64,000 nt of DNA from a virus, in IMG/VR virus record IMGVR_UViG_3300045988_159790; one strand, given 5' to 3'. Under the pieces are notes generated by a model, which searched no databases, was not told the origin of the DNA, and saw nothing but the letters and a program-made list of their open reading frames with translations. How positions within the stretch are numbered: the stretch's first letter is position 1; every line of letters starts with the position of its first letter. The position numbers and the translations under genes were made by a program. Shown here one piece after another: positions 20,411 to 57,780 of the stretch.

Positions 20411-20428
20411 AGATAAAAGGAGAATAGA

Positions 20429-21779: not shown

Positions 21780-21809
21780 CAAATTATTTATTTAAGGAGG
21801 AAAAATATA

Positions 21810-23073: not shown

Positions 23074-23100
23074 GCGGGAATCCCGGTCAAGGATTTCTTT

Positions 23101-23140
23101 AGCGGGGTCGGGTTATTATACTCGACCCCGCATTTTTTTT
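23101..23140 (+). terminator. strong intrinsic terminator after major tail protein/Ig extension
   Basis: GCGGGGTCGGGTTATTATACTCGACCCCGC + ATTTTTTTT. Confidence 0.85.
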
Positions 23141-23159
23141 GTTTATAGGAGGTGAGACA

Positions 23160-24314: not shown

Positions 24315-24317
24315 AAA

Positions 24318-24346
24318 TTGACAATTTAAAAAAAATATGATATACT
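24318..24346 (+). promoter_or_regulatory. internal promoter TTGACA-17-TATACT upstream of 24376..24903
   Basis: Read from sequence. Confidence 0.6.
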
Positions 24347-24375
24347 ATAATTAAGAAATAAAAGGAGGGCTAATA

Positions 24376-24903
24376 ATGCCAAGTTTTAAAGAGTTAGATA
24401 TATCAGTAAATTCTGATTTATATTATGAGGGAGCAACTATAAATAATCACCCTATAAAAGTAAAGCAATATATCCCTATTGAAGAAAAAATAGAGATTGC
24501 GACAAATGTATTAAAAAATTCTTTTGATGAAAAGAATAGTTTTGCCAATCCTTTTAAAGTATCTGTTTATTTTGCTTTAGAGGTTATATATCATTATACA
24601 GATATTTTCTTTACAGATGAAGAAAAAGAAGACCCTACTAACTTATATAACATTCTTGAAAGTAATGATGTTATAAGTGCGGTTATTTCATTAATACCAA
24701 AAGATGAATATGATTATTTAAAATCAACTACAGATGAATTAATTAAGAATTTTTATGCTTATCGTAATTCTGTGTTAGGTATTTTAGAAGCTGTTAATGA
24801 AGATTATGCTGTTACACAGGCAGATTTAGACAATATTATTAAGGAAGTAGAAGACCCTAATTCATTAGGATTATTAAAAGAAATTATGACAAAATTGGGC
24901 TAA
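24376..24903 (+). CDS. hypothetical acidic protein in tail assembly chaperone position
   Basis: RBS AAAGGAGGG; own consensus promoter 24318-24346; terminator 24960-24996 after. Confidence 0.5.
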   Translation: MPSFKELDISVNSDLYYEGATINNHPIKVKQYIPIEEKIEIATNVLKNSFDEKNSFANPFKVSVYFALEVIYHYTDIFFTDEEKEDPTNLYNILESNDVISAVISLIPKDEYDYLKSTTDELIKNFYAYRNSVLGILEAVNEDYAVTQADLDNIIKEVEDPNSLGLLKEIMTKLG

Positions 24904-31000: not shown

Positions 31001-34000
31001 CTCAAAAGTTGACTACATCGACAATGAGTTATGCAGAGACTTTAATTGCAGAAGCTAGAGGTTTAGCTGCTGCAAACACAGAGCTTCAGAACAATGCTGC
31101 AGCAATGCAACAAGTTACAATGTATATTGATGCGCAGGAAAATGCGATTGCCGCGATAGGCAATGTTTATGATAATATTGATGCGCATTTTGATAAGATT
31201 ATGGGTAGTAGTTCTGCTGCTTCATCTTCAAAGAAGAAATACTTTGAAGATGAGTTCGATAGATATTGGGAATTTAAGAAGGCTATTGATGAAGTTGCTC
31301 ATGCAATGGAGCGCCTTGAAGATGAACAAGATAATCTGTACGGACAAGAATTAATTGATAATCTTAATCAAGTAAATGATTTATTAGTAACTCAAAAAGC
31401 TAATTATGAAGCTTTATATGAAGCACAAAAGGTTGAAGCAGAAGAATTAAGAAGCTCATTAAGTGCTTATGGTGCATTATTTGATGAGGAAGGTCGTCTT
31501 ACAAACTATGCAGATATTACGACATCTATGTTTGCACAGTATGGTAATGTTGATGATTCAGAAACATATGAAGAATTTAAGAAATATCTTGAAAGATATG
31601 ATACTCTTTATTATTCTGAAATGGTCGATACTACAGATAAGATTGTAGAAGAATCTAAGAAGATACTTGAAAATAATCTTAAGATTTGGGAAACAGATAT
31701 CCAAATTAACTTAGATTTAAAACAAGCTGAAAGAGACTGGAATGATTTCTTAAAAGAGATTAACAGAAACTTTAAATCAACATTTAGTGATGCAGGACAA
31801 GAGATTGAATATGCTTTAAAGAAAGCTCAAACATTTAACTTAAATGATGGAACTCTTGCAAGTGATATTCAGAAAGTTGAGAATATCAACTATGAAATAG
31901 ACCAATTGAAGAATGGCGGAACAAGTGATTTATTTAGTTCTTTATCAGAAGCAGAAAATGCTTTAAAAGAAGCTAACAAGACACTTCAAGATGATGCTGA
32001 GGAGCTATTCTCAACATATGAAGAAGGTTGGAACGCTTATTTAGAATATATTGATGATGTAGGAACGCATCTTGATAATATTAATAAGAAATATGAAGAA
32101 TTAAATGAAGAGCTTGAACATCAAGCTAATTTAATTAGTCTTTTATATGGAGATACAGCTTATGATAAACTTGCTAAGTTATATGATACTCAACAGAAAA
32201 ATAATTTAGCTCAATTAAAATCTTTAAGACAACAGACAGATTTTTATCAGGCACAATATGAGAAAGCTGTTCAATTAGATGGTGAAGATAGTAAATCCGC
32301 AGAAAAATGGCTTGAAAAGAAAAAACAAGCTATGCAAGACCTTCGTTCAGAAGAAGAGACTTACATTAAGACTATTCAAAGTAAATATAATAATACTATT
32401 GATAGTATCATTAAAAAAGCTAGAATGGCTACTAATGGCGGAGTTGACACTGATTGGGCTAGAACCATGTATGATTTAACAAAGACTAAATCAGAAGGTA
32501 ATTATGATGATGTTGAAAGAGTATATCAATTAACTTCATTACAATCTAAATGGAATAAATTAATTGCAGATACTACAGGAACTAAAAATCAAGAAAAGTT
32601 AAAGAAGATTATGGATGAGCAATTAGCTAATCTTGAAAAGAAAGCTACTTTAACAGAGTATGACATTGGTCTCGCGGAAAAAGCACTTGCGGTAGAACAA
32701 GCTAGAATAGCGCTTGAGCAAGCTCAGAATTCAAAAGATAGTATGAAGCTTACTAGAAATGCAGAAGGTAATTGGTCTTATCAATATGTAGCAGATGAAG
32801 ATAATGTTGCGGAAAAGCAACAAGATTTATTAGATGCTATTAATGATAAATATGAATATGTAAAATCTGCAAATCAACAAGCTTTAGATGATTTACTTCA
32901 ATATGAAGAAGATTTCTGGAATAAATACGCGGAGATTATGAAAGATGTTTCCTTATCTGATGAAGAAAGACAAAGTAGAATAGCTCAACTTTATGATATG
33001 TATTATGGAAAAGAAGGTATTCTTACTCAAGCTTATCAAGACTCTGCACAAACACAACAAGATTTAAACCTTGTTACAGCAGAACAATTATGGGCTATTT
33101 ACGAATCAGACCAAGAGAAGTATGCTACTATGACTGCTGCAGAACAAGAGTTAATAGATGGTTTAAAGAACGGAACTATTAAATCTTATGAAGATATTCA
33201 AGAAGCTGGTCAAAGAGTTAATGATGAAAGTCTTGACTATTGGAATACAACTGCACAAGCAATGGCAGATGCATGGAATGCAGATGATGGAATGAGTATT
33301 AAATCTCAGGTTAATGAAGCTTTAAAGGATTGCTCATCTGCATTAGGAGATTATAATGCAGATGTTGATGCAGGATGCGCAGCCGCAGGTGAAGATTTTA
33401 CAGATGTGGGTAGTGCGATAGATGATGTATCTAGTGCTATTGATGATTTAGATGGAACAACTGAAGATTATATTGACAATGCAGAAAAATTAATTGATGA
33501 TTACATAAATAGTTTAAAAGAATTAGAATCTCAATGGAAAGAAGTTAAGGCTATTGTTGAACAAAATATTGAAACTATGAAGAAATATGAGTTAGCAGCA
33601 AAGAGTGCTTCTACTGTCAAAACTCCAGCTGCTGCAGCTCCATCAAGCGGAGGTAGTGTAGGTGGAAATTCTACTGATATTGCAGATAATAACCCTCCGG
33701 AAGAAACAGTTCATTACTATTCAGTAGATAGCGCACCAGATGGTGATGGTTTAGTAGTAACAGTATATGAAAGAACGGGAAATAGTGAAAAAGCGATAGG
33801 ACGAGATGGAGAAGAGCCAAAAGATTACAGAGACCATAGAATTAGTTCTGTTTGGGAAGCTAGAGATTATATAAATCAAGTTTTATCTGATAATGGATAT
33901 GATGAAGAGTTAGACCCTAATGTAAATGTTCAAACAAGCGGTTACAAATATTATTTAGATAATGCAAGAGTAAATACATATTCTTTCGATACTGGCGGAT

Positions 34001-34353
34001 ACACTGGAGAATGGGATAATTCAGGAAGACTTGCAGTATTGCATCAAAAAGAGCTAGTTTTAAATAAAGATGATACAGAAAACATTCTTAATGCAGTTGA
34101 ATTTGTTCGTGGAATTGCAAGCTCTATAGGAGCTTCATTATTATCTCAACTTGCGGGAATGACAAATGCTACTTCTAGTATTCATCCAGTTAGTGCAGAT
34201 TACTTATCTTCTAATGTTAGTAATGCTTCTAATAATAATGTCTATAATGTTACTGCAGAGTTCCCTAATGCAGAGAGTGTTCAAGATATTAGAGAAGCTT
34301 TATTAAGTTTACCTAATTTAGTTAGTCAAAAAGTTAATGAAAAAAATATTTAA
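25021..34353 (+). CDS. tail tape measure protein (3110 aa)
   Basis: Very long A/S/Q/K/E-rich, largely helical ORF in canonical position after major tail/chaperones; RBS AAGGAG. Confidence 0.85.
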   Translation: MAGRKRIDIDIGFNTDTSRAKAQIQDLQKQIVNLSVAAKQNTATNTLSSDISKAVIEASKLNGILSQSMTFKGDNLDLSKFVTNLNKSGTTISQVRKNLESLGPQGQKAFTSLAQSIMSAEVPLRQSEGLLKSFSTTLTNSAKWTVASGAVHQVQTEFSKAFEYSRKLDKSLNEIRIVSGESSDNMAKFAKQANESAKALNTTTTAYTNAALIFYQQGLDTAAVKERTDAVTKMASVTGETAADVSSYMTAIWNNFNDGSKSVEYFADVLTALGAATASSTDEIAAGLEKFASIGNTVGLSYEYATSALATVVAETRQSADTVGTAFKTLFARIQDLELGNTLDDGTTLGQYSKALESIGVNIKDSKGEVRDMDDILDDMGSKWKTISKDTQIAVAQAVAGTRQYSQLIALMDKWDVFQENLNIAKGAEGSLQQQADIYAESWDAASKKIKTSLEEIYSNLIDSKTMVDLMKFLSKAIEGFGHFVDSVGGVRTAFILLANTIISNQGPQISKYVDKVVDNFKIKFGIMGKEIEATREKAQKEYKAMIAGMDIRTPEDRAQVANMKANYDIENAIFEKKKELAKINANLTESQIEQIANEKAQLKQLTEEAEVTAQIYDTKNKARHAASDDISSIGQRFKSTNLSLDNVDSKKIREKITSEVNKAYYAKNLPENTLQELYAKKVLLGEADELPSEYYLSQNYKGIEKTRARNSRYWDMIHQVDPADENGNYRFSEKERRPTNSANINKTVYKSYLEKYRDTKKLAEGMVNPNFDEEAQEALQNQFFEDYNAAELAYAGNETNISTSNKVLNLFDMNKVKSGKFSLKDMQETLSTLYNSSNENKRMIDDLMKLNEYKKEGNIKKLITGQNVAGADKTDYAHMLQMIENNRTSYLTNRDTLSGNLRGVLQNYGFEATDVTKISDALDEQHKAIKASDKSLADYVKSLLDVQNHSKSVVDSINEMGFSVGSIGENFANGASAMSSFAMTANSAYSVFESIEELFSGDLKLSIGSIIGLFTQLGFSVSGFLQTKKSFNQFSNMLSGTIGNRATLKDQKALEDRKYNLAETKDSIDASFKEYLEKKSVFGKDKGKQKKLSDFASLIGESQTIDLPDNLSKMSADERKDWLSKVSGAKIDSQYRTRDSRLTGITKGLITNDNEWANFTESLKQRKAAAQEEQDIVATTQAVEGRGIQIASKVSKAMGAIGIAVQVATAAYAAYNLIHKAVVANLQKEAEESLRVAQNTTERTKQYKEESDKVSELKKAYDELYNKYNDGELSASALKKQSYDLCMQYGEEELAVKALSGEYKSLEEAMKSIESKKTEKTLNSAKQEQKNYEIALKDQLSASAEEDSGRRDFVNGTETIDLKGMVARNSKEKNLASQLQELGVQFLTNDKISLQSLATAIKTDADAVQSVLNDSDTSAAKQLRQYLSSAKDQIDGLTESIDTAHEAQKTMIVDAQNFDAINSIEDYTTTWRNMVHEALSKGVYDSIEDASKWANSYMSAIDSIKEYAQTATVADTIMSNTSTDVFKDIQKQKDEIDKKTTEDYLNAVGDNAKYIYQDKGLFGTGLFAKGEITEEEYNSHNKSYNQVGAGGNYIYTKEVDQNAVQEWKDSQKIASELNSLQYYESMTKALDNYSTYEQSFFSDNFSQLLSEAMEKNSNNTEKALSSLAEKLPNVFKGSAEKGEADYAQTLVDGLITDKTELTDKQKKQILDTLDFSGVTSEGVSVDEKTLNNMDWSSQATLMASFYGEKLKLIEETGDAAREEAQLEADTYKEKYKEQIDDYKEAQKELELLSEDSDANFTQDDIGKLVDKFNGNDLSGLNSDTIRDLKDAMKNQGYGSDDSDVVNFFKKLSNKKYSDQLEKLDDLVKDLTVDSEDWNKVVKAGEKAQEANSSVIDEIQTGYKTLTSAMKDYNANGYFTMDNLQAILELEPKYLSALEWDGSQFKLNTADLKEMTKAKLADMAVSQARITVAKVESILSSDNVVNAAMELEMTQKLTTSTMSYAETLIAEARGLAAANTELQNNAAAMQQVTMYIDAQENAIAAIGNVYDNIDAHFDKIMGSSSAASSSKKKYFEDEFDRYWEFKKAIDEVAHAMERLEDEQDNLYGQELIDNLNQVNDLLVTQKANYEALYEAQKVEAEELRSSLSAYGALFDEEGRLTNYADITTSMFAQYGNVDDSETYEEFKKYLERYDTLYYSEMVDTTDKIVEESKKILENNLKIWETDIQINLDLKQAERDWNDFLKEINRNFKSTFSDAGQEIEYALKKAQTFNLNDGTLASDIQKVENINYEIDQLKNGGTSDLFSSLSEAENALKEANKTLQDDAEELFSTYEEGWNAYLEYIDDVGTHLDNINKKYEELNEELEHQANLISLLYGDTAYDKLAKLYDTQQKNNLAQLKSLRQQTDFYQAQYEKAVQLDGEDSKSAEKWLEKKKQAMQDLRSEEETYIKTIQSKYNNTIDSIIKKARMATNGGVDTDWARTMYDLTKTKSEGNYDDVERVYQLTSLQSKWNKLIADTTGTKNQEKLKKIMDEQLANLEKKATLTEYDIGLAEKALAVEQARIALEQAQNSKDSMKLTRNAEGNWSYQYVADEDNVAEKQQDLLDAINDKYEYVKSANQQALDDLLQYEEDFWNKYAEIMKDVSLSDEERQSRIAQLYDMYYGKEGILTQAYQDSAQTQQDLNLVTAEQLWAIYESDQEKYATMTAAEQELIDGLKNGTIKSYEDIQEAGQRVNDESLDYWNTTAQAMADAWNADDGMSIKSQVNEALKDCSSALGDYNADVDAGCAAAGEDFTDVGSAIDDVSSAIDDLDGTTEDYIDNAEKLIDDYINSLKELESQWKEVKAIVEQNIETMKKYELAAKSASTVKTPAAAAPSSGGSVGGNSTDIADNNPPEETVHYYSVDSAPDGDGLVVTVYERTGNSEKAIGRDGEEPKDYRDHRISSVWEARDYINQVLSDNGYDEELDPNVNVQTSGYKYYLDNARVNTYSFDTGGYTGEWDNSGRLAVLHQKELVLNKDDTENILNAVEFVRGIASSIGASLLSQLAGMTNATSSIHPVSADYLSSNVSNASNNNVYNVTAEFPNAESVQDIREALLSLPNLVSQKVNEKNI

Positions 34354-34457
34354 AAAATGGGGCAGGAAACTGCCCCAATATTTTTTTGGTCAGTTTTAAA
34401 TAATTTTGCCCAAAGAAAAATTAATTATTGTAAGAGATTAAAAGGAGGTTTTACAGA

Positions 34458-37400
34458 ATGTCAAATAAGAATAGTCAAGATATTTCTTCAGCTTTATTAG
34501 CGGCATTTGAAACTTATAGTAAAAGTACTGCCGCGTCAGTAAAAGCATCTGCTACTATTGAATGTACAATTACTGGTATCGTAGATAGAGCTGCAGGCAT
34601 TTATACAGTTAAATATCAAAACAATATATTTAATGTATACTCTAATAACGCTGACTACTCTATTAAAGATATTGTTTATGTTTTAGTTCCAGAAAATGAT
34701 TTTTCAAAAAAGAAAATGATTGTAGGATTAATAAAGCATAATACTAATGAATCAGCATCTTCTGCAGAGGAAGATTCTACAGCTAGCCAATATCTTGTAA
34801 TTGCAGACAATGTTTTAGATATTAACTCAAAAGAAGTTATAAACCTTTGTTCTTTTCATACAGAAACGAAAGATGTTTTTTCAAGTAATGTAGATTCCGC
34901 AGACCAAGTTTTAATGCCAAAATACTTAAAACATTATAAAACTTATGCTTTATCTATGAAAGTAAAAACTGCATTAATAGATAGTCAAAGAGTTGGCGGA
35001 GATTATGGTATTATATTACAACTTCCATTTTTTAGATATAGTGAAGATAATGATAAGATGATTAATGATAAGACTTTAACATTTGATATTCATAAGATGT
35101 TAGGTAATCCATATAATTATCAAGTTTGGACACAACAGACTTATTACTTTACATTAGAAGAAAATGATGAAGAATTTTATGATAGCCGCAGAAGCCCTAT
35201 TATTTCTGCTTTTGTGAGAGACTTTAATCAAGATGAAAATATTGATACAAATGATATTTTTATTAAAGATGTTCAATTTTTAGTTGTTCAAGCTTTAACA
35301 GAAACAGAAATGCAAGGTAACTATTTAAAAATAAAATCCGATACTGGAGAATACTTTTTAAAGAACTACTTTGAAACAACGAAAACTTTAAAGCCAATTT
35401 TAAAGATAAAAGGACAAGAAAAAAATATTAATGGTTATGATTGCTATTGGTTTGTAAAAGATGCTTCAGTTAATGCAACTAATAATCCTGACTATTGTAC
35501 AAAAGGTGGACTTGGTTGGAAGTGTCTTAATGAGAAAACTAAAGTTAATACAAATGACAATGGCGATACTTCTTATCAATATGTTACAAATGTATATAGT
35601 TATCAAGTAAAGATAGAAGATGTTAAAACATCATTAATTTATAAATGTGTATTAACAAAAGATACAGAAAGAATTTCTGATGAATTAGAAATTGTAAATC
35701 TTAATTCAGATATTAAGTTTAGTTTGTATTCAACAACAGGAAGTAATAATTTTGTAAAAAATATAGGTAAAGTAAGTCTTGCGGCAGACCTTTATTATCC
35801 AGGAATTACAGATAATGAAAACTCAACAAGTAATTTTAAATATTACTGGGATAGATACGCAAAAGATGGAACTTACTTAGATAGTGACTTCTTAACTTTT
35901 AGTGATATAAATGCTAAAGAGAACGGACATTATATTACTAAAGGTACTTATCCGACTTCTAAAATGCAAGATAGTAATTTAATTACTTGTACAGTATTTG
36001 AAGAAAAACAACGCGCGGATGGTAGTATAGAGAGCATTAACCTTGGTAGCGCAGATTTAGCTGTCGCCGCAGCGGATAGTTATGAATATGTAACTTATTT
36101 ATATAATGCAACTAGATTATATAATTATGATTCAGATGGAGATTCTCCTTTTACAGAATATTATGATAAAGATACAGTAAACTTAAATGAAATTGAACCA
36201 ATTACATTTAAGATATATAAAGCAAATGGAAATGAATTAACAGAAACAGAATATTTAGCTGTTAATATTATTTGGAGAATACCAAAGAAGTCTTTGATTA
36301 ATATTAATCCTGTTTTAATTAGTGAGGAAGACGATAATTATTATTATGTTCGTGGCGAGAGAAATCTTCCTTATACCATTGATGCTACATACAATCCTTC
36401 AAAAAGCAATAATGAGATTACTTTATATACCACTTTTGCGGGAGTTGAGATGTTAAATAATACATCATTTACTTTTGTTAAAGATGGCGGAAATGGTACT
36501 AATGGTACAAATTATAGTGCAGAAATTATCATTGACGGATATGCATATGGACAAAAGAATCCTACTACTAACGGAGTGTATAAACTTTGTTATGTTTATT
36601 TTGCAGATAGTGCAAAATGGATGCTATATGATATGCAAAATAATCAATTAATTGATGATACAACATTAAGGACTCTTGATGTAAGAGTATTTAGTCAAGG
36701 TAAAGTTATTACTGATGATACTTTATATACAGTAACATGGAGTATGTTTGATAATAAAGCAACTAATCCTTGCTTTACTTTTGATAGTACAAAAAATCAG
36801 TTAATTCCATCAAAGATATTTGACCCTTCAGAAGTATATTGTAATATTTTGCAAGCAGAAGTAACTGTTACAGATACAAGCGTTGCTAATAAGAATTGGA
36901 TAATTTATGCTTACTATCCTATTGAAATTACTTATTGTGCAAAAGAGTCAGATGTTATTTATACAGATGAAAAAGGCAATAAGAAATGCGCAGTTCCAGT
37001 GCTTAATGGCGGATATTCAGAAGTCTTATTTGCTTCAGATGGTACAAATCCAAAGTGGGACAATAGTTCTAACTTTACTGTTGTAGATAATCTATATAGT
37101 ATAGATAGTTCAAATGTTTATGATTATGAATGGGAGGCTTCAGAAAACTTAAACATTTCAGAATATAGAAGTGCAGACTTACCAGAAAATCAGAAAGTAA
37201 TTGAGCCTACTTCAAAATTTGATAGTGGTATTAGTAAGAACTATATAAAGACAACACTTACTCTTGATTCAAAAACTAAAGAGGGATTAACTAAAACAAA
37301 AGCAGAATATGATAAAGAAGCAGAAGATTATCAAAATCAAATTACTACTTTAACAACTAATTATTCAACTTTAAAAAATGTTTTAAGCTATTTCCAATAT

Positions 37401-39896
37401 AAACCTTGGTTAAATGTTTTAACAGAAGTAAAAGATTATATTTCTCTTAATAATGATATGATTAGAACTTTAAGAGAAAGTGAAAGTCTTTTAAGTGATG
37501 TTAGTAAATATTATCAACAACATACTGAAATTGGCGGAATTGTAACTATTGATTTTGTTACTTATAATAACTATATCAATAGAGATGTTACAAATGCATT
37601 GTTAGGTAAAACTTTGCCAGTTTCTTTTTCAACTAGAAAAATTGATTTAACAGATAGACAGCTTGCTAGGTTAAAAGAAAAACTTGATATTTCTGTTTAT
37701 AATGTATTTATAAATTATGTAAATATATATAATGATAAAGTAGAAGTAGTTCTTCAATATAAGAATCAATTAATCGCAGAAGAAGGCGGTGCTAGAAAGT
37801 ATGAAAGTAAAAGAGAAAAACTCTATAATCTTTGCTCTGGAGATTCTACTAGTGCAATTACAGGAGGAATCTATCCTGTTTCCCGCATGATTTCTACTTT
37901 TGATAAGATTAAAACAACATATAAAAATTCTTATGATAATTTGGTCGCATTACAAAATCATTTCACAGAGATAAGTTCTTATTCTGAATACAGCGATATT
38001 TTTGAAAATATGAAAAAGACACTGTTAGATTATGGAAAATTATCAGATTCAGAAGAGAATATGGAAATTAAAGAAAATCTTACAAATGATTATAATGAAC
38101 AATTAAAATCATTATATAGTTCTAAAATGGCAGCTATAACTCATGCTAATGCGTATGATGTATTAATTGGTGTTGAAATGAATAGAATTATTCATATTAA
38201 ACCAATTATTATGTTGTATAATAGATATGCTATGTCTAACATTAATGGTTGGGATGGTAATAAAATATATACAGGTGATGAAGATAGCTTCTTATTAGCT
38301 CCGCAAGTAGGCGCAGGTAAAAAAGATAGTAATAATAAATTCACAGGTATGGTTATGGGACTTAGAAATTTGAATAAGACATCTGCCGCAGAAGATACCC
38401 AAGTAGGTCTTTTTGGATATAGTGGCGGCGCGCAATCACTTTTCTTAAATGCGGAAGATGGTTCTGCAATATTTGGTCTTCATAAAAGAGGACAAATTAT
38501 TATTGACCCATTAACATCACAAGCCTTGTTATACAGTGGTAATTTTTATAAAGAATTCGGTAAAGATGGAAAGCCAACTGGTTATTCTTCTCAAAATAGG
38601 AATAATCAAGGTATGCAGATTGATTTAACAACACCTAAAATTGAGTTTGGTTCTGGTAATTTCATAGTTACTCCTGAGGGGCATGTAACTGCAAAAGGTG
38701 GAGGCTCAATCGCGGGTTGGCAAATTGGAAATACAACTTTAAAAAGTTCTGATGGGAATGTTACATTAGATTCTCAAAATACTAAGATTTATGGTCATGG
38801 TCACTCTACTCTTGACAATACTACTGATGGATTCTACTTAGGTCCAGATGGTATTAGTATAGGTTCTTGTTTTAGAGTAAATCAAGATACTTTATTATTA
38901 GGAAGCTTAAGAAGCGGTAGTAGACATTGGGAATTAAAGTATGATGCAGATAATAGCTATTTAAGTTACGGTAGAAAAGGAAGTAGTAGTTCTGTTTATG
39001 TAGGAACAGATGCAATCACTTTAGGTCGAAAATTCAGTGTTAATAACGAAGGTGAACTAACTGCAACATTAGGTCACATAGGCGGCTGGAGTATTGAAGA
39101 TAAAAGTTTATCTTGTGATAGTAGGAGTGCTTCTATGTATAGTGGTAGTCATACTACTTTAGATTCAACATCTGGCGGATTTTATTTAAGTTCAGATGGA
39201 TTTAGTCTTGGTAAACATTTTAAATTTAAAGAAAATGGAGAAGGAACAGTTGGTAATCTATATGTTTCTGATTCGGGTTGGTTAGCTTTAAATGTAAATG
39301 AAGATAATGAGTGTGGTATAGGCACTAATTCATCTGCATTTTATGGTGGAAGTCCAGATTCGAGTACTGCGCCTTTTAGAGTTACATATGATGGTCATTT
39401 ATATTCAACTAATGCTACAATATCTGGTGATATAACTGCTTCAAGTGGAACTATTGGTGGTTGTACGATTGAAGAAGGTGTCTTAAAAGTAGACACTATA
39501 AATATTAGAACTGGAGCTATTACTGCAAATGAAATTGCTTCACATACTATTACATCTGATGAAATAGATACTGATAGACTATATTGTAATGCTGCGAATG
39601 TTAAAGGAACTCTTACTGCAAATCAAATAGATTGTCAAGGTGTTATTGATGCTGGAACTATTAATGCAGACAATATCACAACAGGAACTCTTTCTGTAGA
39701 AAGATTAAGTAGTCCAAAGCATACGAAGGCTATTGAATGGTATAGCTATTTTATACCTGGTTTTACGCAAAAAACAATTCAGGTTAATGAAAAACAGGCT
39801 GATGGGACATATCTTTTTCATGATGTTACAATTGATGTAATTCAAAGTAATACTCAACATTACTTCTTAGCAGCAGTACCTGATACTGGTAATTAA
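34458..39896 (+). CDS. large tail/baseplate-associated protein or tail fibre (1812 aa) with C-terminal GGW/IGGW beta-repeat region
   Basis: RBS AAAGGAGG; repeated ...SIAGWQIG.../...IGGWSIED.../...TIGGCTIEEG... motifs and G/S/T-rich C-terminus typical of phage fibre proteins. Confidence 0.55.
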   Translation: MSNKNSQDISSALLAAFETYSKSTAASVKASATIECTITGIVDRAAGIYTVKYQNNIFNVYSNNADYSIKDIVYVLVPENDFSKKKMIVGLIKHNTNESASSAEEDSTASQYLVIADNVLDINSKEVINLCSFHTETKDVFSSNVDSADQVLMPKYLKHYKTYALSMKVKTALIDSQRVGGDYGIILQLPFFRYSEDNDKMINDKTLTFDIHKMLGNPYNYQVWTQQTYYFTLEENDEEFYDSRRSPIISAFVRDFNQDENIDTNDIFIKDVQFLVVQALTETEMQGNYLKIKSDTGEYFLKNYFETTKTLKPILKIKGQEKNINGYDCYWFVKDASVNATNNPDYCTKGGLGWKCLNEKTKVNTNDNGDTSYQYVTNVYSYQVKIEDVKTSLIYKCVLTKDTERISDELEIVNLNSDIKFSLYSTTGSNNFVKNIGKVSLAADLYYPGITDNENSTSNFKYYWDRYAKDGTYLDSDFLTFSDINAKENGHYITKGTYPTSKMQDSNLITCTVFEEKQRADGSIESINLGSADLAVAAADSYEYVTYLYNATRLYNYDSDGDSPFTEYYDKDTVNLNEIEPITFKIYKANGNELTETEYLAVNIIWRIPKKSLININPVLISEEDDNYYYVRGERNLPYTIDATYNPSKSNNEITLYTTFAGVEMLNNTSFTFVKDGGNGTNGTNYSAEIIIDGYAYGQKNPTTNGVYKLCYVYFADSAKWMLYDMQNNQLIDDTTLRTLDVRVFSQGKVITDDTLYTVTWSMFDNKATNPCFTFDSTKNQLIPSKIFDPSEVYCNILQAEVTVTDTSVANKNWIIYAYYPIEITYCAKESDVIYTDEKGNKKCAVPVLNGGYSEVLFASDGTNPKWDNSSNFTVVDNLYSIDSSNVYDYEWEASENLNISEYRSADLPENQKVIEPTSKFDSGISKNYIKTTLTLDSKTKEGLTKTKAEYDKEAEDYQNQITTLTTNYSTLKNVLSYFQYKPWLNVLTEVKDYISLNNDMIRTLRESESLLSDVSKYYQQHTEIGGIVTIDFVTYNNYINRDVTNALLGKTLPVSFSTRKIDLTDRQLARLKEKLDISVYNVFINYVNIYNDKVEVVLQYKNQLIAEEGGARKYESKREKLYNLCSGDSTSAITGGIYPVSRMISTFDKIKTTYKNSYDNLVALQNHFTEISSYSEYSDIFENMKKTLLDYGKLSDSEENMEIKENLTNDYNEQLKSLYSSKMAAITHANAYDVLIGVEMNRIIHIKPIIMLYNRYAMSNINGWDGNKIYTGDEDSFLLAPQVGAGKKDSNNKFTGMVMGLRNLNKTSAAEDTQVGLFGYSGGAQSLFLNAEDGSAIFGLHKRGQIIIDPLTSQALLYSGNFYKEFGKDGKPTGYSSQNRNNQGMQIDLTTPKIEFGSGNFIVTPEGHVTAKGGGSIAGWQIGNTTLKSSDGNVTLDSQNTKIYGHGHSTLDNTTDGFYLGPDGISIGSCFRVNQDTLLLGSLRSGSRHWELKYDADNSYLSYGRKGSSSSVYVGTDAITLGRKFSVNNEGELTATLGHIGGWSIEDKSLSCDSRSASMYSGSHTTLDSTSGGFYLSSDGFSLGKHFKFKENGEGTVGNLYVSDSGWLALNVNEDNECGIGTNSSAFYGGSPDSSTAPFRVTYDGHLYSTNATISGDITASSGTIGGCTIEEGVLKVDTINIRTGAITANEIASHTITSDEIDTDRLYCNAANVKGTLTANQIDCQGVIDAGTINADNITTGTLSVERLSSPKHTKAIEWYSYFIPGFTQKTIQVNEKQADGTYLFHDVTIDVIQSNTQHYFLAAVPDTGN

Positions 39897-40114: not shown

Positions 40115-40182
40115 GTCTAAAATATGTAATTTATATTTTTTAGATTTTAAATGTAATATAGGATAGGAGGTAGCTTATCTAA

Positions 40183-48016: not shown

Positions 48017-48084
48017 TTGGTCAAAGTTTTGTAATTTATTAATTGAGATTTTTATATTATATATAAATATGGAGGTGTTGTTTA

Positions 48085-51678: not shown

Positions 51679-54312
51679 ATGTTAATTATTAATAATTTTA
51701 ATATTTGCGATGGATACTATAATAATAGTCCTCTTATAGCAGCTTATTGGGGTAGTAATTTAGTTTGGCAGAAACAACTTTCTAATCCATATGTTAGATA
51801 TTTAAACGGAATTGCTTTTAAAAATATTTTCGATACTTTAGAATATGGAGCCTATTCTGAAAATATTGCTAATATTTGTTTTTATAATGCTTCTAATGAG
51901 ATAGCTAATCATTTTACAAAAAATATCTTTTTTGCATATAATGAACCAATAAATTTTAGAACTACAACCCGAAATATCTTTATTGAAGATAATAAAGAGC
52001 CTCCTTCAGAAATTTTTCTTGTAGGAGATTGTAGCTATTTATTATCAAAATGGCAAACGCAAGCTTATTATTTTGATATTAAAAATAATAAAAATAAAAT
52101 TCCTTCTTTAAATTTTCATTATGCAGAAAATTTAGCTTTTTTTTTAGGGGACCCCTATTATTATAATTATAAAGTTTATTCAAGATATTCCAAAAATAAT
52201 ACTTTTTATTACTATCTCTTTGATGAAGTACCATTTTCTATAGATTGTGGAGATAATACTTTAAATTTATATTGTGCATATTATAATCAAAATACTATTA
52301 TAAAAGCAAAAAATCTATGTGGTGAAAATACTATTTCACTATATGGTAGTTATGAGAATTGTTCCAATTTAGTAGCTTTTCCGCAATGTAAGAATAATGT
52401 TATAGATATGTCTCGTACTTATTATAATTGCAGCAACTTGATAGGTACTCCAGTATGTGGAGATAATGTTATAAATATGGATTGTACATATTATAATTGT
52501 AGTAATATTACTGGGCAGGCAAGAATAAGCAAAAAAGCTACTATGGTATCTCAGACTTATGCTTTTTCAGGCGTAAATGAGGTAGCTCGAGAATTAAATC
52601 CTCTAATGACCCATTATAATTGGGTATATTTAGGTTGTCATAATATAAAAAATATTTATTGGGATTCAAAAATAAATTATAGAAATATTGGAGAACTAGA
52701 CCATTATGGTTTTTTTAATCATTATTTTAGTGGAGTGTATGCAGATACTGGAATTGAAGAGGCTTTTTTCCCTTTTATTAACAATAATTCATATTATGAA
52801 TTAGAGTCTGGCTACTCTATGTTTCAATCTTGTCAAAATCTTCATAAAATAAATTATTCTTTTGATAATAATATAACTAAAATAAGCGGACATGTCTTTA
52901 TAAATAATAGTTTCTCATATTGTCCTAATTTAAAAAATATTCATTTTCCAAATTATGCAACTTCAGTATCTTTTTTATCTCAAAATACAGGAGTGACTTC
53001 TATTAATTTTGATAATCTTATTAATACTTCTAGTGTTACATTAGACTTATCTTATAGTCAAAATTTAATAGAGGTTAATAGTTGTAATATAAATTATTTA
53101 CGTTCGTATAGAACTGTTTATTATTATTTTGAAAATTGCAGTAATTTAAAAATTTTTAATGTTAGTAATTTAAACCTAGGAGGCGATACCTGGGCTGGAG
53201 GTGTAAAGTTAAATAACTGTATTAATTTATATTCTGCCAAAGTAGATGAGTTTCCTCATGTAAACTTTTATAATTGTAGAAATTTAAAAAATATAGTTCT
53301 TGGAAAAAAAATAAGAGAATTATATCATACTTTTGAAAATTGTATAAGTTTATCATCTGCAATACTACCAGAAGATTTTTCTAATAGTAATAAAACAGGA
53401 CATTATCCAGATAGAGGCTTGCTCTTCTGTATGGAAGCAGCTTTTAAAAATTGTACAAATTTATTATCTGTTAATGGAGGTTTACAATTATTTAGAAGCG
53501 CTGCGGATAGAAAGGAAATTTTTTGTAATTGTTATAATCTTGTAAATGTGCCAACTTCTTTTTATAATAATGCAAAATATAATTTTATTATGTTTCAATA
53601 TGATTATAATACTAATAATTATGGTATTTGGAATAATACTTTTGCAAACTGTTATAATTTAATTACAGCTCCTTTTATTCCTGTTAGGAGTTACAATGGA
53701 TGCTATTTCTATGATACTTATTGGAATTGTACAAATTTAAGGTATTTAAAAGTAGAAGGTATTGATATGAATGATTATTATAATATAAATAAAGATATGC
53801 TTCAATATAACATATCTTTAAGTAGAACTTTTGGATATTGTAGATGTTTGAACAAAGAGGGCTTCGGACCTTTATTTAATAGAATATTAAATAATGTATC
53901 CTTTTTATTTGAAACTTTTATTGGTTGCGATAATTTATATGAAGCTTTTGAAATGCCAAATGTTAGACTAATGGAAGGTGCATATAGTAATTGTAAAAAT
54001 TTAATTACTGCATATAGTGGACCAAATACAATAGATTTATATTCAACATATTCAGATTGTCCTAATTTAAGAGGCAATCTTTATCTTCAAAATAATAATA
54101 TGAATAATATTAGTCGTTGTATTTATAATAGGAATAATCAGAATATTTTAAATATTTATGTAAATTCAAACACAAAAACCAACAATACTTTATATTATAA
54201 TAATTTATATGAAATATGGAGTAATGCAAATTATTGGAATATATGGTCTAATGGTTTAGGATATGATGATGCAAAGAACAATGTTTATGTTTATTACTTA
54301 GATAAAATGTAA
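51679..54312 (+). CDS. LRR_5 (BspA-type) repeat protein, larger paralog of 48641..50545
   Basis: Many NCxNL repeat units; shared C-terminal WSNGLGYDDAKNNVYVYY motif. Confidence 0.55.
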   Translation: MLIINNFNICDGYYNNSPLIAAYWGSNLVWQKQLSNPYVRYLNGIAFKNIFDTLEYGAYSENIANICFYNASNEIANHFTKNIFFAYNEPINFRTTTRNIFIEDNKEPPSEIFLVGDCSYLLSKWQTQAYYFDIKNNKNKIPSLNFHYAENLAFFLGDPYYYNYKVYSRYSKNNTFYYYLFDEVPFSIDCGDNTLNLYCAYYNQNTIIKAKNLCGENTISLYGSYENCSNLVAFPQCKNNVIDMSRTYYNCSNLIGTPVCGDNVINMDCTYYNCSNITGQARISKKATMVSQTYAFSGVNEVARELNPLMTHYNWVYLGCHNIKNIYWDSKINYRNIGELDHYGFFNHYFSGVYADTGIEEAFFPFINNNSYYELESGYSMFQSCQNLHKINYSFDNNITKISGHVFINNSFSYCPNLKNIHFPNYATSVSFLSQNTGVTSINFDNLINTSSVTLDLSYSQNLIEVNSCNINYLRSYRTVYYYFENCSNLKIFNVSNLNLGGDTWAGGVKLNNCINLYSAKVDEFPHVNFYNCRNLKNIVLGKKIRELYHTFENCISLSSAILPEDFSNSNKTGHYPDRGLLFCMEAAFKNCTNLLSVNGGLQLFRSAADRKEIFCNCYNLVNVPTSFYNNAKYNFIMFQYDYNTNNYGIWNNTFANCYNLITAPFIPVRSYNGCYFYDTYWNCTNLRYLKVEGIDMNDYYNINKDMLQYNISLSRTFGYCRCLNKEGFGPLFNRILNNVSFLFETFIGCDNLYEAFEMPNVRLMEGAYSNCKNLITAYSGPNTIDLYSTYSDCPNLRGNLYLQNNNMNNISRCIYNRNNQNILNIYVNSNTKTNNTLYYNNLYEIWSNANYWNIWSNGLGYDDAKNNVYVYYLDKM

Positions 54313-54328: not shown

Positions 54329-54763
54329 ATGATAACAACCACAATAAATAGCTTAACTAAAAAAGCTGAAAATTCAGATACTACATACCAAATTGCAGTA
54401 AAACAATTTCTAGTAGAACCTTTAAGAGGTTCTACTGGAGTTAATAATCTTGAAGAACAATTTTTATTAGGAGTTGATTGTGTAACAACAGAGCAAGAGG
54501 ATTCTAGTACACATGTAAAAACAATAGTACAAGAATTTAGAAACGCGGATTCTGTTACAACTAATTATTATACAATCACTTCAACTATACAACCAGAACT
54601 AAGTGCGGGATACACCGCTGCATATACTGAAATAGAAAGACATGTTCTCTCTTTTGTTTCTGCGGCTGGCACTATTACTGTAGCAACTAAGGTTGTATCA
54701 AAAAAGAAAGAGAACAATATTACTTCTACTAAGACAGTAATTACAAATAGTCTGGCGGGTTAA
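54329..54763 (+). CDS. hypothetical T/S-rich protein, last gene of fibre operon
   Basis: RBS AAAGGAG; strong terminator 54754-54783 overlaps its stop. Confidence 0.5.
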   Translation: MITTTINSLTKKAENSDTTYQIAVKQFLVEPLRGSTGVNNLEEQFLLGVDCVTTEQEDSSTHVKTIVQEFRNADSVTTNYYTITSTIQPELSAGYTAAYTEIERHVLSFVSAAGTITVATKVVSKKKENNITSTKTVITNSLAG

Positions 54764-54783
54764 AATACCCGCCTTCTTTTTTG
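54754..54783 (+). terminator. intrinsic terminator ending fibre operon
   Basis: GGCGGGTTAAAATACCCGCC + TTCTTTTTT. Confidence 0.85.
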
Positions 54784-54974
54784 TAATTAGCTGTAATCTA
54801 ATTTTCTTTGTCAATTCGGACAAGTTTTCACTTTAAAAAATAATCGTATGTCTCCTGTTAAATTGCGAATTTCTACATGAAATAGTTAAAATTTTCCAAA
54901 ATTTCATGACAATTCTACATAAATCACTTAACGCTATTTTTATATAGTATTGCAAGGGAAAGGAGAAAAGAAAA

Positions 54975-55385
54975 ATGTATAATCAAATGCCTTATTTTGG
55001 TCAACAAACTCAGTCGCCATATAGCTTGCCACAATACTACCAGCAAGCACCAACGCCGCAACCACAGTTTGTAGCACCACAACCACAACAACCTACATTA
55101 AAAGGAAGACCGGTTTCTTCAATAGATGAGGCTAAAGCCTCTCAGATTGATTTTGATGGAAGTCTATATCTATTCCCAGATATTGCTAATAAAAGAATTT
55201 ATACAAAGCAGATAAGCGAAAATGGAATAGCTATAATGAATTCTTATTCTTTGCAAGAAGAAATTTCCACACTTCCGCAAGAATATGTAACTAAGGAAGA
55301 GTTTGACAAGGTTGTTGCACAATTGAAGTCTCTATTGGAAGAAAGAGATAAAAAGGAAACACCCAAAGCAACTATGAGTTTTTAA
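54975..55385 (+). CDS. hypothetical protein with Q/P/Y-rich low-complexity N-terminus
   Basis: RBS AAAGGAG; first gene of a separate five-gene unit. Confidence 0.5.
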   Translation: MYNQMPYFGQQTQSPYSLPQYYQQAPTPQPQFVAPQPQQPTLKGRPVSSIDEAKASQIDFDGSLYLFPDIANKRIYTKQISENGIAIMNSYSLQEEISTLPQEYVTKEEFDKVVAQLKSLLEERDKKETPKATMSF

Positions 55386-55397
55386 TAGGAGGTTTTA

Positions 55398-55634
55398 ATG
55401 AGTAATGGAATAAATCCAATGCAACTACTTGGAATGATAAAAAATGGTTCTAACCCACAGCAATTAATGCTGTCAATCTTAGAACAAAATCCTAATATGA
55501 AGACATTAACAGACTTAGCAAAAGCTAATAATGCAAATGGTATTGAGAATTTTGTTAGAAATTATGTTAATAGTCAAGGTGGAGATTTTGATAAAGATTT
55601 TAATGCCTTTAAACAAATGTTAGGCGTTAAATAA
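55398..55634 (+). CDS. small hypothetical protein (N/Q-rich)
   Basis: RBS AGGAGG. Confidence 0.5.
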   Translation: MSNGINPMQLLGMIKNGSNPQQLMLSILEQNPNMKTLTDLAKANNANGIENFVRNYVNSQGGDFDKDFNAFKQMLGVK

Positions 55635-55661
55635 ATAAATTTTATAAGGAGGACAAAAGAA

Positions 55662-56444
55662 ATGTTCAATTCAAACAGTGGTTATTCATTAGCCGATATT
55701 GCTGCGGCAACCGGCAATAATAACTGTAACAATGGCGGTTGGAATGACGGAGGTGCCTGGTGGATTATTATCTTGTTCTTATTCTGCTTTGCTGGCGGAT
55801 GGGGAAATGGACGAGGTGGACTCTTCGGAGGTTCAGATTCTACAGGTAGTGGTATAACAGATGGTTATATTTTAACTTCAGATTTCGCTAACATCGAAAG
55901 GAAAATCGACAATGTAAACAACGGTATCTGCGATGGATTCTATGCTATGAATACTGGTATGTTAAATGGCTTTGGTCAGGTAAATAACAATATTACACAG
56001 CAAACAATAGCAGATATGCAGAATACTAACGCAGTAACTGCTCAAATTACCGCGTTAAGTAATCAGATGAGTCAGTGCTGCTGCGATAACAAATTCCAGT
56101 CTGCAACGCAATCAGCTGACTTAAATTATCGCTTAGCTGAACAGAGTTGCCAGACTCGTCAGACTATAGCGGATGCTGCGCAGGCAATAACATTAGGAAA
56201 TGATGCTAATACTCGTAGTATCTTAGCTGCTATCCAGGATATGAATACTCAAGCATTACAAGATAAGATTGCTACTCTTACAGCAGACAATCAGGCTCTT
56301 AAGTTTGCTGCTTCTCAGCAAGCTCAGAATGCATATCTTGTTCACACTTTAGCACCAAGTCCAAACCCAGCATATATTGTTCCTAATCCTTACACAGGAA
56401 ATTATGGATACAATAATTGTGGTTGTTGTGCATGTGCAGGCTAA
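55662..56444 (+). CDS. hypothetical protein with one TM helix, Gly-rich segment, Q-rich helical middle and Cys-rich termini (QCCCDN; NNCGCCACAG)
   Basis: RBS AAGGAGG. Confidence 0.5.
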   Translation: MFNSNSGYSLADIAAATGNNNCNNGGWNDGGAWWIIILFLFCFAGGWGNGRGGLFGGSDSTGSGITDGYILTSDFANIERKIDNVNNGICDGFYAMNTGMLNGFGQVNNNITQQTIADMQNTNAVTAQITALSNQMSQCCCDNKFQSATQSADLNYRLAEQSCQTRQTIADAAQAITLGNDANTRSILAAIQDMNTQALQDKIATLTADNQALKFAASQQAQNAYLVHTLAPSPNPAYIVPNPYTGNYGYNNCGCCACAG

Positions 56445-56460
56445 TTAAAGGAGGTCTATA

Positions 56461-56883
56461 ATGGAGATTACAGCAAATGCAGTTCAGACAGTAACAGCAA
56501 ATTCAAATGTAATATTTACAGACACTCCGGTGTCAGGTAATTGCTCTATTGTTCATAGAGAAGGTTCAGGTCTCGTAAAATTACGCGGCCTGACTTCTAC
56601 CCAATGTAGAGCAAGATTTAGAGCTAGTTTTGGAGCAAATATCGCATTGCCAGATGGCGGTACTGCTGGTCCAATTTCAGTAACTATCTCTCTTGATGGA
56701 GAACCAATCTCCGCTACTAGAATGATTGTTACACCAGCCGCAGTTAGTAATTATTTTAATGTTTCTGCAGATATTTTTGTAGATGTGCCTAAAAATTGTT
56801 GTGCTACAATAGCAGTTACAAATACAAGTGGAGTAACTATCTTAGTACAAAATGCTAATTTAATTGTTGAGCGAGTAGCTTAA
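56461..56883 (+). CDS. beta-sandwich protein resembling C-terminal (C1q/TNF-like) domain of exosporium protein BclA (ends ...NANLIVERVA)
   Basis: RBS AAAGGAGG; all-beta composition; C-terminal ...LIVERVA resembles the BclA ending ...IIIEKVA as I recall it (not checked). Confidence 0.4.
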   Translation: MEITANAVQTVTANSNVIFTDTPVSGNCSIVHREGSGLVKLRGLTSTQCRARFRASFGANIALPDGGTAGPISVTISLDGEPISATRMIVTPAAVSNYFNVSADIFVDVPKNCCATIAVTNTSGVTILVQNANLIVERVA

Positions 56884-56897
56884 AGAAAGGAGTCCTT

Positions 56898-57443
56898 ATG
56901 AATAACTTAAAAAGTATGAAAGAGCAATTAACCAGTGTTGTCCAAGCGCAAATGGGAAATATGCAAAATGTAAATGCTAAAGAGTTAGGCGAAGCTGTTG
57001 ATATGATAAAGGACCTATCTGAAGCTATTTATTATTGCACAATTACAGAAGCTATGGAAGAAAAAGAGAAAGAAGAAATACATTATTATACAGATAAAAG
57101 ATATCCAGATTACTATAGAGACGTAGATAGAGAATATGGAAGAATGTATTATGATGACAAACCTGGTGCGGGAACTGGATATACTGGTACACGAATGATG
57201 TATACAGAACAAATTCCAAAGACAATGATGCGTGATTCTAGAGAGGGTAGAAGCGGTATGAGCCGCCGCATGTATATGGAATCTAAGGAAATGCACAAAG
57301 ATAGTACTACTCAAATGCATGAATTAGATAACTATATTAAAGAATTAGGTAGTGATATCACAGAAATGATAAAAGATTCTACTCCAGAAGAAAAACAAGT
57401 TCTCCAACAGAAAATAGCTAATTTAGCTGCAAAGATAAAATAA
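56898..57443 (+). CDS. hypothetical Tyr/Met/Arg-rich low-complexity protein
   Basis: RBS AAAGGAG; YYTDKRYPDYYRDVDREYGRMYYDD. Confidence 0.5.
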   Translation: MNNLKSMKEQLTSVVQAQMGNMQNVNAKELGEAVDMIKDLSEAIYYCTITEAMEEKEKEEIHYYTDKRYPDYYRDVDREYGRMYYDDKPGAGTGYTGTRMMYTEQIPKTMMRDSREGRSGMSRRMYMESKEMHKDSTTQMHELDNYIKELGSDITEMIKDSTPEEKQVLQQKIANLAAKIK

Positions 57444-57760
57444 TGAAAATAAATGGTATTGATTGGAGGGTTTATTTTGTTGAAAAAGATAATGAAAAAT
57501 TACAAAGAAGTGATGGCTCATATACCCTCGGTTCATGCGATAATAATACTAATATTATTTATCTTAGAGAGGATTTGTATGGAAGGTCATTAAAAAAAGT
57601 CTTATGTCATGAACTAGCGCATGCGGCAATGTTTTCGTATCAAATTAATTTGACATTAGACCAAGAAGAGCTAATTGCAGATTTTATTGCAACTTATGGA
57701 GAAGAAATTATTGATATTACGAATTTTCTTTTTAATAAATTAAAGGAGAGGTCTTATTGA
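57443..57760 (+). CDS. small HExxH zinc metallopeptidase-like protein (SprT/ImmA-like)
   Basis: CHELAHAAMF motif; TAATG overlap with previous gene; stop inside bidirectional terminator hairpin. Confidence 0.5.
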   Translation: MKINGIDWRVYFVEKDNEKLQRSDGSYTLGSCDNNTNIIYLREDLYGRSLKKVLCHELAHAAMFSYQINLTLDQEELIADFIATYGEEIIDITNFLFNKLKERSY

Positions 57761-57780
57761 CCTCTCCTATTTTTTTGTTT
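57745..57780. terminator. terminator hairpin at convergence of rightward and leftward arms
   Basis: GGAGAGGTCTTATTGACCTCTCC + TATTTTTTTGTTT on plus; sits between convergent genes. Confidence 0.7.

Follow-up and report, generated by a model that had tools for sequence, protein, structure and literature searches.

The DNA analysed here is a stretch of 64,000 nucleotides (nt) from a virus (IMG/VR record IMGVR_UViG_3300045988_159790), referred to below as the window. Six small genes, here called g1 to g6, lie directly downstream of its tail-fibre genes on the same strand and are bracketed by terminators (54754-57768; Table 1). They constitute a conserved six-gene accessory module, probably expressed late. 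The original prediction, made from the sequence alone, had described the unit as a self-contained five-gene cluster of spore-coat or exosporium-like, low-complexity proteins. The five open reading frames (ORFs) g1 to g5 are indeed present on the plus strand at their predicted positions, and their translations have the compositions described and contain all the peptides quoted (QCCCDN, NNCGCCACAG, LIVERVA and YYTDKRYPDYYRDVDREYGRMYYDD). The fibre-operon terminator is real, and so is the separate upstream region of the cluster, a 211-nt spacer before g1. The cluster as such stands, but its five-gene extent does not: because the start of g6, a gene with an HExxH motif, lies inside the stop codon of g5 (TAATG) and a terminator comes directly after it, the unit has six genes.

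Matches to PHROG families were found for g1 (phrog_21718, E = 7e-6), g3 (phrog_16490, E = 5e-29), g4 (phrog_20016, E = 6e-54) and g6 (phrog_1233, E = 5e-17). All four families are labelled "unknown function", and no paper in the library searched cites any of them. No Pfam, NCBIfam or PADLOC match was obtained for g1 to g5. Within the unit, a membrane-like hydrophobic segment occurs only in g3, while g1, g2, g4, g5 and g6 show neither a signal peptide nor a hydrophobic N-terminus.

Table 1. Positions of the module genes and flanking signals in the window (protein lengths in amino acids, aa)
Feature	Position	Strand	Description
Intrinsic terminator	54754..54773	+	GGCGGG-loop-CCCGCC then T run; ends tail-fibre operon
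Promoter-like site, CGGACA-16-AATAAT	54817..54844	+	weak evidence
Window copy of conserved box upstream of g1, ATATAGTATTGCAAGG	54941..54956	+	consensus in relatives YATATAMTAATGAAAGG
g1, 136 aa	54975..55385	+	family phrog_21718
g2, 78 aa	55398..55634	+	Asn/Met/Gln-rich, repeated NP..QL motifs
g3, 260 aa	55662..56444	+	family phrog_16490
g4, 140 aa	56461..56883	+	family phrog_20016
g5, 181 aa	56898..57443	+	helices at both ends, variable linker
g6, 105 aa, HExxH gene	57443..57760	+	family phrog_1233
Bidirectional terminator hairpin	57744..57768		closes the unit and the converging RuvC gene

Proteins of the module

The layout of g3 is the same in the alignment and in a low-confidence AlphaFold2 monomer model: a conserved acidic N-tail, a Gly-rich run, the hydrophobic segment WWIIILFLFCFAG, a second Gly-rich run, a long helix, the conserved motif P.PAY.VPNPY and a Cys-rich C-terminus. 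The single membrane-like segment covers residues ~30-48. The helix extends over residues 115-230 (~115 residues) and carries an invariant CCC and a nearly invariant CQTRQ motif. In total, the protein contains 11 Cys and 27 Gly.

On its structural model, g4 is a stand-alone jelly roll of the type seen in C1q, TNF and the C-terminal domain of BclA, and presumably it is trimeric. The AlphaFold model, built from a 33-sequence alignment, is all-beta and confident (predicted local distance difference test, pLDDT, 84.9; predicted TM-score 0.78), and the jelly roll begins at residue 2 of the 140-aa protein. In a fold search, the closest structures were BclA, F-BclA and ExsFA, with an identity to the BclA structures of only 16-17%. 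Other matches were the Sf6 tail-needle knob, PRD1 P5 and cyanophage tail-fibre tips. In BFVD, the nearest structures likewise belong to stand-alone gut-phage proteins, 130-142 aa long, and for one of them the depositor had chosen the name "BclA protein". At the profile level, no Pfam or NCBIfam model, BclA_C included, matched g4 at E<=0.1. Conservation of the protein is unusually strong, with an invariant CC113-114 and the C-terminal NANLIVERVA, and g4 is 60-70% identical between phages whose fibre genes are unrelated.

An exhaustive profile search with g4 returned 844 clusters of relatives at 50% identity. Among the best 150 of these 844, from which lengths were taken, all relatives are stand-alone and no longer than 196 aa. 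We also read seven longer forms and saw no collagen fusion. Six of them either are deletion chimeras (g1-g4 or C22-g4) or have extensions at the N- or C-terminus that are unrelated to g4, and these six show no GXX repeats. In the metagenomic chimeras P0250, P0253, P0381 and P0247, an N-terminal part from g1 or from the Cys-peptidase-like family C22 is fused to the C-terminal part of g4. The fusions remove g2 and g3, and one junction lies at a shared "GS" dipeptide. These chimeras are either natural deletions or assembly artefacts.

Judged by its motifs (HExxH...EE), g6 is a putative minimal zinc metallopeptidase of the minigluzincin/M78/SprT-like kind. H56, E57, H60, E75 and E76 are invariant in 14 diverse sequences, and among solved proteins its closest relatives in sequence are MJ1213, a minigluzincin of 110 aa (E = 0.019), and IrrE (E = 0.14). 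Its Pfam scores fall just below the cut-offs for DUF6782 (24.2 bits versus 27), SprT-like (24.1 versus 25.6) and M78 (21.7 versus 22).

The three remaining proteins are of low complexity or helical. The first 42 residues of g1 contain 12 Q, 9 P and 5 Y; this head is variable and leads into a conserved core (LKGRPVSSIEE..IDFDGS.F.FPD.ANK.IYTKQI) and then a C-terminal helix. In g5, which contains 14 Tyr and 17 Met, conserved N- and C-terminal helices enclose a variable, disordered linker rich in Tyr, Arg, Asp and Met. Profile searches of the PDB gave no meaningful match and no solved relative for either g1 or g5. g2 is 17% Asn, and it is possible that it serves as a chaperone for the hydrophobic segment of g3.

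Conservation, distribution and expression

Using g4 as bait, we collected 80 IMG/VR loci and 44 GTDB contigs, which were compared by tblastn and all-against-all clustering. The order g1-g2-g3-g4-g5-g6 is kept in ~100 related phage contigs at 40-70% protein identity, and the upstream tail-fibre genes are unrelated between lineages. With ~100 independent contigs, the six-gene order is not due to chance. Among the first 86 loci, the place of g2 is conserved in 79, and g6 was detected alongside g1 to g5 in 79. In most SPbeta-like relatives, a holin gene lies directly upstream of g1, belonging either to phrog_13712 (E = 1.9e-25) or to a second family, C47, called holin-like from sequence only. The earlier remark that no holin or endolysin is recognisable at this usual lysis-cassette position holds for the window, in whose 64 kb neither was found, but not for most relatives. 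At window 54329-54763, where most relatives carry the holin gene (for example, L020:5991-6380 and L015:6720-7034), there is a 144-aa ORF with no assigned function, followed by the terminator.

A variant of the module is found in phages of ~40 kb, including Butyrivibrio phage Ceridwen. It consists of a Cys-peptidase-like protein (phrog_3754), g1, phrog_22984 as the analogue of g2, g3, g4 and two more proteins, one g5-like and rich in Tyr, Arg, Ser and Asp, the other small and helical. The phrog_3754 protein that opens this variant (L001:4068-4445 and homologues; 125-160 aa) has conserved DC.VRA, GH.V and D.WDS motifs, which resemble those of a papain-like cysteine peptidase; it has no Pfam match. 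Loci that lack the HExxH gene may therefore still have a protease in the module, as one of its recurring parts. Ceridwen, which infects Butyrivibrio fibrisolvens, is the only cultured phage with both g3 and g4.

In several lineages, the module lies close to lysis genes. It starts ~0.6 kb after the endolysin gene in Ceridwen, ~0.7 kb after a carboxypeptidase gene that follows the holin gene in cr116_1, a crAss-like phage, and ~3.4 kb after amidase and holin genes in the Clostridium perfringens phage CPD1. In the provirus vir215, it lies between a tail gene and the integrase gene. g1 is found in CPD1 and Ceridwen as well. The g3 family is also present in C. perfringens phages, many crAss-like phages, Bacteroides uniformis phage C3_41T2LP and two viruses assigned to Methanomassiliicoccales, and the Gly/hydrophobic/Gly segment and the CCC motif are kept in all g3 homologues of those groups. 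In the Methanomassiliicoccales proviruses (L138:4878-5759 and L139:4860-5783), the g3-family protein has two CCC motifs and CQTRQ, with no Pro/Cys tail, and its gene is near a diversity-generating retroelement reverse transcriptase, large surface-anchored repeat proteins and an integrase. Two Bacteroides-phage loci have the following series after g3: a small Cys protein rich in beta structure, a protein combining beta structure with a coiled coil, a tiny protein rich in Tyr, Arg, Asp and Glu, and finally an HExxH protein. Outside g3, this neighbour set was compared by size, composition and HExxH motifs, and by analogy it appears to mirror the window module.

At the place between the lysis cassette and genes of the gp31/major capsid protein type where cr116_1 has the module, its relative ΦcrAss001 has no counterpart, nor was ΦcrAss001 among the listed tblastn matches. 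Because of this difference, the module is accessory in the crAss-like lineage and probably dispensable for virion building there. In public metagenomes, g3 and g4 each have at least 7,700 matches, counted as 90%-identity clusters.

Homing endonuclease genes also occur in the module. In a 96-99% identical relative (L135:8438-9984, corresponding to window 55662-56444), a 767-bp insertion interrupts g3 directly behind its nucleotide 100. This insertion carries an HNH_3 endonuclease ORF and looks like an intron or a homing-endonuclease insertion; it matched no Rfam intron family at E<=0.01. Free-standing HNH/AP2-type genes are located between g2 and g3 (L017, L034-36, L061 and CPD1) or after g4 (Ceridwen). 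The module is targeted by HNH genes and by one precise insertion, as are other conserved phage genes.

Upstream of g1, 46 distinct sequences of relatives have in common a YATATAMTAATGAAAGG box located 25-45 nt before the start codon, and many relatives have TTGGCAAAA- or TTGACAAA-like boxes ~30 nt further upstream. No second intergenic copy of the conserved box was found within the window. The box contains (C/T)ATATAAT, with a TATAAT-like hexamer, and represents a -10/leader element specific to the module or, alternatively, a regulator site. Some of the relatives have CATATAAT here, a sequence that we take to fit the sigma-E/K -10 consensus and that overlaps the one of sigma-A as well, although the host's own consensus may differ. 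The check for sporulation-sigma promoters proposed with the original prediction therefore gave a mixed outcome: the box is compatible with the -10 elements of both sigma-A and sigma-E/K, but the window copy reads TATATAGT, without the C, and no matching -35 element was seen by eye in the upstream sequences inspected.

The promoter-like site of Table 1 resembles GGTC...TGTAATTTAT boxes found after the terminators at 40.1 kb and 48.0 kb, a similarity that is not statistically enriched; TTGGWC-N-TATAWT and GGWCWANNTTTT are not enriched in the window either. The sequence TGTAAT(T/C)TA(T/A) has only three copies in the window (40125-40134, 48030-48039 and 54792-54801), each with an intrinsic terminator a few tens of bases before it and a block of late genes behind it. 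This count is no more than expected by chance; the placement is suggestive of a late promoter or an anti-termination element.

The window itself uses the standard code. In about half of the relatives, in-frame TAG (mostly aligned to Gln) or TGA (aligned to Trp) codons are present in g1 to g6 and in RuvC (L003-L006, L013, L020, L026, L030, L050, L076, L097, L100, L103 and others; the TGA loci are L039, L048, L063, L101 and L108). This indicates stop-codon recoding. In the recoded relatives, in-frame TAG/TGA codons number 2.9-29 per 1000 codons in g1 to g6, versus 0.1-1.6 in the dUTPase, NrdD and polymerase genes, a comparison confounded by the high Gln content of g1 and g2. The denser in-frame stops in the module fit the late gene class. 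Late timing is also suggested by the place of the module immediately behind the tail genes, on their strand, and by the conserved upstream box of its own.

Possible functions of the module

The original prediction had taken the Cys- and Tyr-rich compositions and the BclA-like g4 as hallmarks of spore coat or exosporium assembly. On this view, the proteins would imitate or alter the coat or exosporium of spores formed by a Clostridia host, or would provide virions with a decoration of exosporium type. The distribution of the module argues against it. Homologues of g3 are found in Bacteroides and crAss-like phages and in archaeal viruses, and to our knowledge the hosts of the crAss-like and Bacteroides uniformis phages and of the Methanomassiliicoccales viruses do not sporulate. 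The same is true, as far as we know, of Butyrivibrio fibrisolvens, whose phage has the g3 and g4 pair. It is true that metagenome-assembled genome (MAG) bins of related contigs are mostly Clostridia, although the binning of phage contigs is unreliable, and that SPbeta-type phages have ties to sporulation. A motif-limited scan of 185,579 species genomes for g4 matched only contigs from MAGs or uncultured isolates, with no record from a cultured isolate, and those contigs with enough flank have the same phage gene order. As for the proteins themselves, the Cys- and Tyr-rich compositions are as described and the fold of g4 is nearest to BclA, F-BclA and ExsFA, but the profile searches of Pfam, NCBIfam and PHROGs returned no BclA_C, Cot, Cde or ExsY match at E<=0.1 (for g1 to g5, none to the CotY/ExsY or CdeC/CdeM families), and neither collagen repeats nor long forms appear among the listed best 150 of the 844 g4 clusters. 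The CATATAAT box of some relatives is compatible with a sigma-E/K -10 element, whereas the window box lacks the C and has no matching -35 element. Taken together, a spore-related role is very improbable. One element of the idea survives, the C1q/TNF-like fold of g4, which the model bears out although the BclA_C profile match is absent. The interpretation was right on one fold and wrong on function: a "BclA-like fold" need not mean "spore-related".

The reading that we tentatively prefer, at clearly less than an even chance, is a late membrane-level role, most plausibly in lysis or egress, for an assembly resembling a stalk and a knob. A membrane-level role is favoured because the module adjoins lysis genes in several unrelated lineages and because its hosts share only the cytoplasmic membrane, which is the structure common to monoderm, diderm and archaeal envelopes. 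In this scheme, g3 would be a membrane-anchored coiled-coil stalk, and a trimer of g4 would cap its Pro/Cys tail, giving a split version of the stalk-plus-knob design of TNF ligands, BclA and phage fibres. The suggestion is made because the g4 fold is universally used as a trimeric tip, and because the tail of g3 correlates with a small beta-rich Cys partner. The Pro/Cys tail is present wherever such a protein follows, that is in the window, Ceridwen, CPD1, cr116_1 and C3_41T2LP, and the archaeal versions of g3 have neither the tail nor such a neighbour. g2, and possibly g1 and g5, would chaperone or scaffold the assembly, and g6 would trim one of the components. The complex would most likely form on the cytoplasmic face of the membrane, because g1, g2, g4, g5 and g6 lack a signal peptide or membrane segment. 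The module may then act at lysis or egress and not on spores; it could, for instance, be a timing device or a source of membrane lesions, associated with the holin.

A number of observations weigh against this proposal. The binding of g4 to g3 is something we infer, and the monomer model of g3 is poor (pLDDT 55). The charges flanking its hydrophobic segment are few, with only the N-side mildly acidic, and do not settle the topology. Among PHROGs, g3 finds only families of unknown function and none of holins or spanins, and the true holin of the relatives is a different gene (phrog_13712). In the window phage, no holin gene is located beside the module, and in the Bacteroides phage C3_41T2LP the module sits among recombination genes. 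The Bacteroides-phage neighbours could not be linked to g4, g5 and g6 as homologues, since a hidden Markov model of 113 g4 representatives, hhalign of two family profiles (probability 2.4%) and profile-to-sequence searches all gave non-significant results. The confounding Gln content of g1 and g2 also affects the in-frame-stop argument for late expression. Finally, Ceridwen, CPD1 and cr116_1 have canonical lysis genes (holin or endolysin) in addition to the module, which is therefore not needed for basic lysis.

Two further candidates were rejected. The module is not the lysis cassette proper, given that Ceridwen, CPD1 and cr116_1 also carry ordinary endolysin and/or holin genes. The combination of a jelly roll, a protease and a scaffold-like protein was considered as a mini-capsid or satellite, and was dismissed in view of the lack of replication and packaging genes and the fixed position of the module inside phage genomes.

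The location of the module directly after the tail-fibre genes, on their strand, brings to mind a virion part: a head or tail fibre made of g3 and g4 and bearing a TNF-like knob, or an ejection protein that inserts into membranes, with g1, g2 and g5 as chaperones and g6 as maturation protease. The lack of a signal peptide in any module protein would suit such a role, and depositors have labelled the crAss-like homologues "spike protein/glycoprotein" or "outer capsid protein/viral fiber". However, the module forms its own transcription unit, separated from the tail genes by the holin gene in most relatives; g3 has a strongly hydrophobic segment between Gly runs; and ΦcrAss001 has no module at the cr116_1 site and is not among the listed tblastn matches. 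Moreover, the 60-70% identity of g4 in spite of unrelated fibre genes is unlike that of a host-range determinant. We consider a virion part unlikely.

Somewhat less likely still is superinfection exclusion or cell-surface conversion, in which a membrane-anchored complex blocks the DNA entry of other phages or alters the surface of the infected or lysogenic cell. Genes in an arms race are seldom so highly conserved, and six genes with a protease are far more complex than known exclusion systems, although exclusion proteins typically have a single-pass membrane design. The partner proteins have no export signals, and the genes belong to a late operon in a phage with no integrase seen in the window. 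On the other hand, crAss-like phages have the module as an accessory; its place in Ceridwen and CPD1, between the lysis genes and early/regulatory genes, is typical of a moron; and in archaeal proviruses the neighbours of g3 are large surface-anchored repeat proteins, with the integrase close by. The probability left after these four readings goes to some role not yet imagined.

A further reading is put forward as a speculative possibility. Since phrog_16490 (g3) is present in archaeal viruses as well as in phages of Firmicutes and of Bacteroidota, it may anchor a viral membrane machine that is common to the gut virome and has gone unrecognised. If this is true, the machine of Firmicutes phages would have a stand-alone C1q/TNF-like trimer as its cap, with a dedicated protease and disordered proteins as helpers, and would represent a new class of lysis, egress or exclusion device. 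Alternatively, the highly conserved TNF/C1q-like g4, freed by lysis, could bind a conserved host-animal or mucus ligand. The g3 and g4 families are very large and strongly conserved, with no Pfam model or known function. They are found in abundant gut phages, beside genes that decide when and how cells burst, and g3 crosses host phyla and domains. Once known, their function would allow annotation of thousands of "hypothetical" genes, and could reveal a new late-infection membrane role and the purpose of a free-standing BclA/C1q-like trimer in a virus.

Phage background and relation to known systems

The window is the late region of a large siphophage, in which PHROG matches mark the genes for a terminase, a portal, a sigma factor and a tape measure protein of 3110 aa; the last is followed by a 1812-aa protein with no family match. 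Precomputed Pfam matches of the window's own proteins include the SPbeta families YonG_N, YonD_N, YonB, YomW, YomV_2nd, YomU_Tube and YomO. The Yon/Yom-family structural genes, which take their family names from genes of the Bacillus SPbeta prophage, occupy 9601-24903 and 25021-39896. Downstream of the module, the opposite strand encodes RuvC, dUTPase, the anaerobic ribonucleotide reductase NrdD and a PolIII-alpha-type polymerase. A 99%-identical g4 was found on an IMG/VR contig of 150,460 bp. The window phage belongs to a gut-anaerobe branch of SPbeta-like phages, and its source is an SPbeta-like siphophage of ~150 kb from an anaerobic, low-GC gut Firmicutes host. The sigma factor gene (8434-9582; phrog_5767, E = 1.3e-49) stands at the head of the late region. 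No NCBIfam sigma model matched its product, and no match supports typing it as sporulation-like.

Just 5' of the module, an 877-aa protein (51679-54312) is extremely rich in Asn, Tyr and Cys and contains repeated "Y.NC.NL" units, which resemble BspA-type leucine-rich repeats. It has no PHROG or Pfam match and is probably a variable receptor-binding fibre. At the corresponding position, the close relative L134 has a non-orthologous 387-aa ORF with a faint match to PF13306 (LRR_5).

The g4 protein has the C1q/TNF-like jelly-roll fold in common with the C-terminal domains of BclA and F-BclA and with ExsFA (BxpB), proteins of the Bacillus exosporium and endospore appendages. Unlike these, g4 has neither a collagen-like stalk nor an N-terminal exosporium-targeting region. 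It is also encoded by phages, including one phage of a non-sporulating host, and its partners g3, g5 and g6 have no counterpart at exosporium loci. With minigluzincins (MJ1213, "selecase"), ImmA/IrrE (M78) and SprT-like proteins, g6 has in common its size of ~105 aa, the HExxH motif and a downstream EE as the predicted third ligand. However, all its matches to these groups are under the curated thresholds, and g6 does not lie beside a repressor gene, the usual place of ImmA.

Among lysis proteins, the T4-type class III holin (T) and the i-spanins (Rz) resemble g3 in layout: the N-tail is short, there is a single membrane segment, and the large C-terminal domain (~200 residues) contains cysteines and a coiled coil. 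They also resemble it in being encoded at or next to the lysis cassette. In the case of the holin, canonical holins coexist with the g3 module. In the case of two-component spanins (Rz/Rz1), g3 has the predicted N-terminal membrane segment and coiled-coil layout, but the module includes no outer-membrane lipoprotein partner and is not confined to diderm hosts. Spanins make no sense in monoderm bacteria and archaea, which are among the hosts of g3-family viruses.

A further parallel is offered by TNF ligands, which are single-pass membrane proteins with an N-terminal anchor, and by stalk-plus-knob fibres such as the Sf6 tail-needle knob, PRD1 P5 and cyanophage tail-fibre tips. The design common to them is an N-terminal anchor, a coiled-coil stalk and a trimeric TNF-like knob. 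In the module, the stalk (g3) and the knob (g4) would be separate polypeptides, with the Pro/Cys-rich tail as their junction. No fusion of stalk and knob was seen: of the 844 g4 clusters, the best 150 listed reach at most 196 aa, and six of the seven longer forms that were read are the chimeras or extended proteins described above. A new version of the stalk-plus-TNF-like-knob theme, split and anchored in the membrane, describes the module best.

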